Counted from the first letter of the stretch, positions 53,354-54,008 are shown. The stretch: 64,000 bases of DNA from Escherichia coli (GCF_003334785.1 NZ_QOWV01000005.1), one strand, 5' to 3'. The notes: generated by a model not told the origin, from the sequence alone. A program made the numbers and translations.

Positions 53354-53620
53354 ATGGACATTAACAACAAAGCCCGCATTCATTGGGCATGCCGCCGTGG
53401 TATGCGCGAACTCGATATTTCAATCATGCCGTTTTTCGAACATGAGTACGACAGCTTAAGCGATGACGAAAAACGCATCTTTATTCGTCTGCTGGAATGT
53501 GACGATCCGGACCTGTTTAACTGGCTGATGAATCACGGTAAACCGGCCGATGCAGAACTGGAAATGATGGTCCGACTCATCCAGACACGGAACCGGGAAC
53601 GTGGTCCTGTGGCAATCTGA
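53354..53620 (+). CDS. sdhE: FAD assembly factor SdhE (succinate dehydrogenase flavinylation; also called CptB)
   Basis: 88-aa [43 protein letters not shown]... recognised. Confidence 0.93.
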
Positions 53621-54008
53621 TTTGCGCGTCTCCTGGCGCGCACAGTGGCTTTCCTTGCTGATTCATGGGCTGGTTGCCGCTGTTATTTTACTCATGCCCT
53701 GGCCACTCAGTTACACCCCGTTATGGATGGTGTTACTTTCGCTGGTGGTGTTTGATTGCGTTCGCAGCCAGCGGCGTATTAATGCTCGCCAGGGGGAAAT
53801 TCGCTTGTTGATGGACGGGCGTTTGCGTTGGCAAGGGCAGGAGTGGAGCATCGTCAAAGCACCGTGGATGATTAAGAGCGGCATGATGCTGCGTTTACGT
53901 TCTGATGGCGGTAAACGGCAACATTTATGGCTGGCAGCCGACAGCATGGACGAAGCTGAATGGCGGGATTTACGGCGGATTTTGTTGCAACAAGAGACGC
54001 AAAGATAA
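53601..54008 (+). CDS. ygfX: Inner membrane protein YgfX (CptA)
   Basis: 135-aa ORF with two predicted TM helices near the N-terminus; overlaps the sdhE 3' end by 20 nt. Confidence 0.88.

Follow-up and report, generated by a model that had tools for sequence, protein, structure and literature searches.

The overlapping gene pair at positions 53354-54008 of the window (the whole 64,000-nt stretch of Escherichia coli DNA analyzed here, GCF_003334785.1 NZ_QOWV01000005.1) is the already known chromosomal sdhE-ygfX operon. On the basis of our results, the pair is very probably a vertically inherited, bicistronic housekeeping unit in which YgfX serves SdhE as a membrane partner or modulator, with coupled synthesis of the two proteins, and is not a dedicated toxin. 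To what was known about this locus we add that the overlap of the two genes is conserved across Enterobacterales, that it appears to encode a strand of YgfX with the SdhE tail in a passive role, that the cytoplasmic part of YgfX is predicted to form a PH-like domain, and that the genomic behavior of the pair speaks against its toxin-antitoxin (TA) label. This label is still propagated for YgfX by Pfam and by many TA surveys.

The first gene, sdhE (also ygfY or cptB; 53354..53620, plus strand), starts with ATG and encodes in 267 nt an 88-aa FAD assembly factor that serves SdhA and FrdA, and the second, ygfX (cptA; 53601..54008, plus strand), starts with GTG and encodes in 408 nt a 135-aa inner-membrane protein. 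A preliminary description of the window had already proposed these identities and sizes, and they were confirmed by the ORFs, by profile matches and by RefSeq. Upstream of sdhE lies the divergent gene ygfZ (52131-53111, minus strand), and downstream of ygfX the convergent gene fldB (54048-54569, minus strand), which is followed by xerD and dsbC. The sdhE (b2897)-ygfX (b2896) operon of E. coli K-12 is the identical locus, with the same relative coordinates and the same neighbors (ygfZ, fldB, xerD and dsbC). The window DNA was 100% identical to sequenced E. coli chromosomes, and the RefSeq record of an identical chromosome contains both coding sequences with the same 20-nt overlap. When a 1-kb query (53100-54100) was searched against the complete E. 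coli genomes, every one of them (5426 of 5426) contained a match at 90-100% identity, the median number of matching places being one, and the annotated features beneath these matches were ygfZ, sdhE, ygfX and fldB. The gene order ygfZ / sdhE-ygfX / fldB-xerD-dsbC-recJ was retained in Providencia, in Pantoea and in a distant lineage. The same gene pair also forms the sdhEygfX operon of Serratia sp. ATCC 39006, in which the two genes are co-transcribed and their products interact (PMC5042078).

With regard to control elements, a scan for sigma-70 promoters with a simple consensus gave no match in 53050-54120, including the 242-nt intergenic region between the divergent ygfZ and sdhE genes (53112-53353). 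Within the 60 nt upstream of sdhE, conservation climbed only in the last ~12 nt before the ATG. A search of 52900-54700 against Rfam returned no family match except a sub-threshold RT-4 hit within ygfZ.

The biochemical role of SdhE is structurally established (6C12 and 6B58). The protein encoded in the window matched the NCBIfam equivalog model NF008130 over residues 1-88 (198.4 bits, cut-off 120) and the Pfam family Sdh5 (PF03937) over residues 7-79 (E 5.8e-26). Its sequence is that of the PDB chains 1X6I (E 8e-59) and 6C12 (E 4e-58), both matched over the full length, and the chain in 6B58, in which SdhE was crystallized with FrdA, spans residues 6-84. The RGxxE motif, which is functionally important in SdhE (PMC8621075), could be read from the translation as R15-G16-M17-R18-E19 (53396..53410, plus strand), and R15, G16 and E19 were invariant in a paired alignment of 26 genomes. 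Five helices were predicted for SdhE in an AF2 run of an SdhE-linker-YgfX chain. The family profile, the RGxxE motif and a five-helix bundle with a solved structure were all found, as in the SdhE/Sdh5/SDHAF2 flavinylation factors.

Among the alternatives to a housekeeping operon, the one that survives best, and which we still regard as unlikely, is that the pair is a genuine type IV TA system, in which membrane-bound YgfX (CptA) would inhibit the polymerization of FtsZ and MreB and SdhE (CptB) would neutralize it via the same targets. In the preliminary description, the TA system was set beside a second published description, an SDH assembly factor with a membrane partner, and both are indeed present in the literature. 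As described in the papers that cite it, the claim goes back to a single over-expression study (Masuda et al., 2012), in which over-expression of YgfX in E. coli led to a growth block, lemon-shaped cells and inhibited polymerization of FtsZ and MreB, and YgfY relieved these effects. Several papers have since cited this claim, the Pfam title of PF07254 reads 'Membrane-bound toxin component of toxin-antitoxin system', a CptBA-like TA system has been reported in Acinetobacter (PMC8132199), and the arrangement of two genes in one operon, with the small partner upstream, is reminiscent of a TA system.

The published toxicity tests of the pair disagree. Two laboratories have observed no TA phenotype: work of the Fineran laboratory in Serratia and E. 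coli found none, yet detected a protein-protein interaction (PMC3985639), and for the Shewanella pair neither toxicity rescue nor interaction was seen, the latter in a two-hybrid assay (PMC8621075). The direct interaction reported between SdhE and YgfX in Serratia contradicts the definition of a type IV system. In addition, SdhE has an independent, structurally proven function, and its distribution reaches far beyond the taxa with YgfX (PMC5042078). Deletion of ygfY in E. coli gives a viable mutant with a specific SDH defect, to which a polar effect on ygfX may possibly contribute (PMC5293155). The current NCBI product name, also used in the RefSeq record of the identical chromosome, is the plain 'protein YgfX'.

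The genomic data also argue against a TA system. The pair belongs to the core genome, with a single copy in 5426 of 5426 E. coli genomes, has a fixed housekeeping synteny across Enterobacterales and is essentially absent from plasmids and phages. Only 12 of the 72,556 plasmid records in PLSDB matched, several of which were multi-megabase chromosomes labelled as plasmids, and the two matching phage records (out of 50,697) were a contig of a Salmonella genome that had been filed among phages and a 1.5-kb fragment. A PADLOC search of the locus gave no match. Likewise, in a survey of E. coli TA systems (mBio 2023), CptA_toxin was a single group, present in all sequence types studied. The patchy, multi-copy and mobile occurrence that is typical of TA systems was not observed for sdhE-ygfX. 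Thus, the genomic evidence lends the TA label poor support, and the two genes have the appearance of a housekeeping pair. A comparison with established type IV systems points in the same direction. CbtA/CbeA (YeeV/YeeU) and AbiE are, like sdhE-ygfX, two-gene operons, and action on FtsZ and MreB has been claimed in publications for both CbtA and YgfX. However, CbtA/CbeA resides in cryptic prophages and occurs in several copies, whereas sdhE-ygfX is a single-copy core locus. Moreover, unlike in type IV systems, the 'antitoxin' is here a conserved metabolic assembly factor, and both an interaction of the partners and the lack of a TA phenotype have been published.

It should be noted that one of the plasmid records, the 51-kb 'plasmid' pCUVET19-891.4 of Enterobacter hormaechei (NZ_CP114989.1, L093), contained the whole block bglA-ygfZ-sdhE-ygfX-fldB-xerD-dsbC-recJ-prfB-lysS. 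This record is probably a misassigned fragment of the chromosome.

The two genes share a dual-coding segment, GTGGTCCTGTGGCAATCTGA (53601..53620, plus strand), which encodes the last six codons and the stop of sdhE (R-G-P-V-A-I-stop) and the first codons of ygfX (M-V-L-W-Q-S-D). The TGA stop of sdhE occupies 53618-53620, so that the overlap is exactly 20 nt, and relative to sdhE, ygfX is read in the +1 frame. In the ygfX frame, a stop codon at 53565-53567 is followed by the GTG at 53601 as the earliest possible start. To survey this arrangement, we used one genome per species (GTDB representatives) and YgfX peptide patterns taken from outside the overlap, which yielded 80 loci from genera including Escherichia, Citrobacter, Salmonella, Enterobacter, Kosakonia, Kluyvera, Siccibacter, Cedecea and Buttiauxella. 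Together with one E. coli record, a set of 81 loci was obtained, all from Enterobacteriaceae. The GTG start, the TGA stop of sdhE and the exact 20-nt overlap were present in all of them (81/81). Conservation across Enterobacteriaceae had been suggested in the preliminary description as the check for the 20-nt overlap, and the identical geometry was found throughout. The 20 nt were nearly invariant over these loci; the chief change, CTG to CAG, is silent in sdhE and replaces L3 by Q in YgfX.

Ten more distant YgfX lineages were retrieved by exact-protein look-up. ygfX was located directly 3' of sdhE in nine of the ten loci, the exception being Candidatus Symbiodolus (see below), and the same 20-nt GTG overlap was observed in six, including Providencia and Duffyella, at a YgfX identity of 29-52%. 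In Pantoea ananatis the GTG is found two codons further upstream, which results in a 26-nt overlap; in one distant lineage ygfX starts with ATG and overlaps sdhE by 14 nt, and in another the two genes are separated by a 1-nt gap. In Shewanella, sdhE and ygfX are 37 bp apart (PMC8621075). The N-terminus of YgfX (MxxWQxxLRxS) was conserved in a 39-member alignment down to ~27% identity. Because the GTG and the geometry are kept across loci and the N-terminal residues are conserved in distant homologs, the overlap is, as judged from these alignments, a genuine and ancient feature of Enterobacterales and no product of a miscalled start.

An overlap of 20 nt is unusual, and miscalls are frequent for GTG starts; we therefore considered that the overlap might be an annotation artifact, with YgfX starting at TTG 53622 or ATG 53694 and the two genes merely abutting. 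This explanation appears highly improbable. The TTG at 53622 is only 1 nt past the sdhE stop, and database entries for some relatives are shorter (97-127 aa); however, the GTG was present in 81/81 loci, whereas the codon at 53622 varied (TTG, CTG, TTA, CTT and CTC), and a start at ATG 53694 would remove the first transmembrane helix. YgfX residues 2-8 were conserved to ~30% identity, were included in the Pfam match, which begins at model position 1, and formed a strand in the AF2 model (pLDDT 94). The alternative starts CTG 53607, TTG 53622 and ATG 53694 were all ruled out by conservation.

A programmed +1 frameshift at the overlap, giving a membrane-anchored SdhE-YgfX fusion, has next to no probability, although ygfX is in the +1 frame of sdhE and proteins of 166-217 aa with both Sdh5 and Cpta_toxin domains occur in public assemblies, since the fusion clusters were nearly all singletons (one has two members), the frame switched at scattered codons (about 28, 48, 60, 72, 84, 86 and 88) in a pattern of sporadic indels or assembly errors, no slippery motif was found at the sdhE stop, and AUC-UGA, unlike CUU-UGA in prfB, is unable to re-pair in the +1 frame. 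The fusion ORFs P0002, P0003, P0005, P0008, P0009, P0010, P0013 and P0022 came from E. coli and Citrobacter assemblies in ENA and Logan; judging from where their frames switch, such ORFs are most likely the result of indels or assembly errors.

Returning to the genuine overlap, we examined the synonymous variation of sdhE across the 81 loci. Third-position entropy averaged 1.06 bits in codons 2-77, 0.31 bits in codons 78-82 and 0.11 bits in codons 83-88. For codons 78-88 as a whole the mean was 0.20 bits, and no 11-codon window elsewhere in the gene fell below 0.76; likewise, none of 72 sliding 5-codon windows was as low as codons 78-82. Synonymous variation in sdhE thus drops from ~15 nt upstream of the GTG through to the stop. 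The conserved stretch in codons 78-82 (53585..53600, plus strand) combines low third-position entropy with a purine-rich, weak SD-like sequence (GGAA/GGGAA), and the best anti-SD duplex upstream of the ygfX GTG had an energy of -4.3 kcal/mol. Because the suppression begins ~15 nt 5' of the GTG, ahead of the coding part of ygfX, 53585-53600 is a probable embedded translation-initiation region of ygfX. An RNA element at the junction was also considered. A local hairpin that would bury the GUG was no more stable than shuffled sequences (z = -0.56), its inner stem was disrupted in Buttiauxella/Cedecea-type sequences, and this candidate was rejected.

The other product of the overlap is the SdhE tail R83-I88 (RGPVAI). 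These residues are outside the Sdh5 domain (7-79) and largely outside the chain of 6B58 (6-84), and in loci with a shorter overlap or none (L082 and L090) unrelated residues stand in their place. The simplest reading is that the N-terminus of YgfX dictates the DNA of the overlap and that the SdhE tail is a passenger.

On the basis of the invariant junction, the GTG start, the weak SD-like sequence and the suppressed synonymous change 5' of the start, translation of ygfX is likely to depend on translation of sdhE. The locus shows the features of coupled overlapping genes, that is, a conserved same-strand stop/start overlap and no strong independent ribosome-binding site. In these features, and in its conserved geometry, sdhE-ygfX is like the usual coupled pairs (ATGA and TAATG, with 4-nt and 1-nt overlaps). 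In contrast to these short overlaps, the 20 nt found here mean that a terminating ribosome must back up ~17 nt, or that initiation occurs while sdhE is being read. The preliminary description went further and took the tight overlap as support for strict stoichiometric co-expression, which our results do not sustain: the overlap implies co-transcription and probable coupling, and no fixed 1:1 ratio. A GTG start with a weak SD sequence inside an upstream gene more usually gives a lower yield of the downstream protein. In the part of an absolute proteome data set available to us (Mori 2021), CptA/YgfX was zero, that is, undetected, in every condition, and small membrane proteins are hard to detect. 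We also predicted SdhE and YgfX as a single chain joined by a linker (SdhE-GS30-YgfX) with AF2, using a shallow paired alignment of 26 genomes and not the multimer mode. Both parts were folded, the linker was disordered and no confident docking could be observed (pTM 0.45).

YgfX belongs to the Pfam family PF07254 (Cpta_toxin, formerly DUF1434), which it matched with residues 2-131 over model positions 1-132 of 133 (E 7.4e-50). The same family was matched by all 39 diverse YgfX relatives, and no NCBIfam model was matched in a search with YgfX. Two hydrophobic peaks were evident in the hydropathy profile (residues 14-34 and 36-54). The AF2 model, built from the 39-sequence alignment, was very confident (pLDDT 94.7, pTM 0.77) and begins with a beta-strand of residues 2-8 (53604..53624, plus strand; pLDDT 94 for residues 1-10), which is largely within the overlap. 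W4 and L8 of this segment were conserved in the alignments. The strand is followed by transmembrane helix 1 (residues 12-31; 53634..53693, plus strand) and by transmembrane helix 2 with a cytoplasmic extension (residues 36-62; 53706..53786, plus strand), each predicted as a helix by AF2 and coinciding with a hydropathy peak. Both lines of evidence agree with the two-transmembrane architecture that had been proposed for YgfX. Between the helices, a short periplasmic loop (PWPLSYTP) contains W34, which was invariant in alignments A2 and A3, and on the cytoplasmic side D114 was at least 90% conserved in alignment A1. These two residues are reported to have been found functionally important by McNeil et al. 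in 2013.

The cytoplasmic domain (residues 63-135; 53787..54005, plus strand) was modeled as six beta-strands and a C-terminal helix (118-134), which together with strand 1 form a PH-like arrangement. YgfX is thus predicted to be a PH-like, seven-stranded beta-sandwich capped by the C-terminal helix, with a transmembrane hairpin inserted after strand 1. Positive charges, as read from the sequence, flank the hairpin on its N- and C-terminal sides, and both termini of YgfX would therefore be cytoplasmic, which is consistent with the predicted pairing of strand 1 with the C-terminal sheet. In membrane-anchored bacterial PH (bPH) proteins, the transmembrane segment precedes the whole domain, whereas in YgfX the hairpin sits after strand 1. 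Pfam bPH families were not among the matches of the 39 YgfX members even at E <= 0.1, a Foldseek search of the YgfX model against the PDB returned nothing significant, and a sequence search of the PDB with YgfX gave no match. The family is small, with 133 clusters at 50% identity among 1.84 billion representatives, and matches to YgfX in AFDB were confined to Enterobacterales, Orbaceae-type gut symbionts and Photobacterium. The dN/dS of ygfX was about 0.05-0.15, with saturated dS, which indicates strong purifying selection on the gene.

Taken together, these observations can be assembled into a mechanism for the housekeeping operon. SdhE is a soluble protein of five helices through which FAD becomes covalently attached to SdhA and FrdA more readily. 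YgfX is a small inner-membrane protein whose transmembrane hairpin would separate the first strand from the other six in a PH-like beta-sandwich on the cytoplasmic side, capped by the C-terminal helix. The first of these strands would be encoded by the same 20 nt as the dispensable C-terminal tail of SdhE, so that the N-terminus of YgfX would dictate the RGPVAI sequence. Because the GTG is invariant and the SD-like sequence is weak and embedded in sdhE, initiation of ygfX most likely needs ribosomes that are translating or terminating sdhE. Synthesis of YgfX would then be tied to that of SdhE, probably at a lower level and not at 1:1. In Serratia, YgfX has been reported in the literature to multimerize and to bind SdhE, and for this reason YgfX would best be seen as a partner of SdhE in the membrane or as its modulator. 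The defects in growth and shape upon over-expression of YgfX would be a side effect and no dedicated toxin action.

A more specific version of this mechanism is put forward here tentatively, as a possibility that we ourselves find rather doubtful. YgfX might be a 'split' PH-like membrane tether, in which the first strand, overprinted on the SdhE tail, would come together with the C-terminal 70 residues around the transmembrane hairpin at the cytoplasmic face. Its multimer might keep SdhE, or SdhE bound to flavinylated SdhA or FrdA, at the membrane and so allow transfer to the membrane subunits. The ~35-nt invariant junction might then fix a sub-stoichiometric ratio of YgfX to SdhE, and the cytoskeletal toxicity might be an over-expression artifact of this scaffold.

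In Candidatus Symbiodolus clandestinus, an insect symbiont (CP152425.1, a 1.5-Mb record; L092 2419-2944), ygfX encodes a protein of 147 aa with an N-terminal extension. The gene is separated by 82 nt from the divergent ygfZ, with no sdhE between them, and is followed by nadB-rpoE-rseA. A tblastn search for SdhE found none in this 5.4-kb ygfX locus. That ygfX has been kept here with no sdhE beside it hints at a role of YgfX that is independent of SdhE.

Several minor features were noted at the 3' side of the E. coli locus. An antisense ORF of 153 aa (53711-54172, minus strand) runs over the 3' two-thirds of ygfX; it contained extra stops in 61 of 81 Enterobacteriaceae species and was discarded as spurious. 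The 39-nt gap between the convergent ygfX and fldB genes contains a GC-rich hairpin (54012..54041, strand not assigned) with a GACGGC...GCCGTC core and a folding energy of -18.3 kcal/mol (z = -4.0), and 0 of 200 shuffled sequences was equally stable. A T-run was found beside the hairpin only on the minus (fldB) strand, and ygfX is without a canonical intrinsic terminator of its own. The hairpin is a probable terminator of fldB, as far as its sequence context indicates. Finally, in one of the 5426 E. coli genomes, that of strain FXCREC180 (NZ_CP196031.1; L094 3909-5500), synteny was lost 3 nt past the ygfX stop, and an ompW-family fragment, a phage integrase and an excisionase were found in place of fldB, which suggests a prophage-associated rearrangement at this junction.
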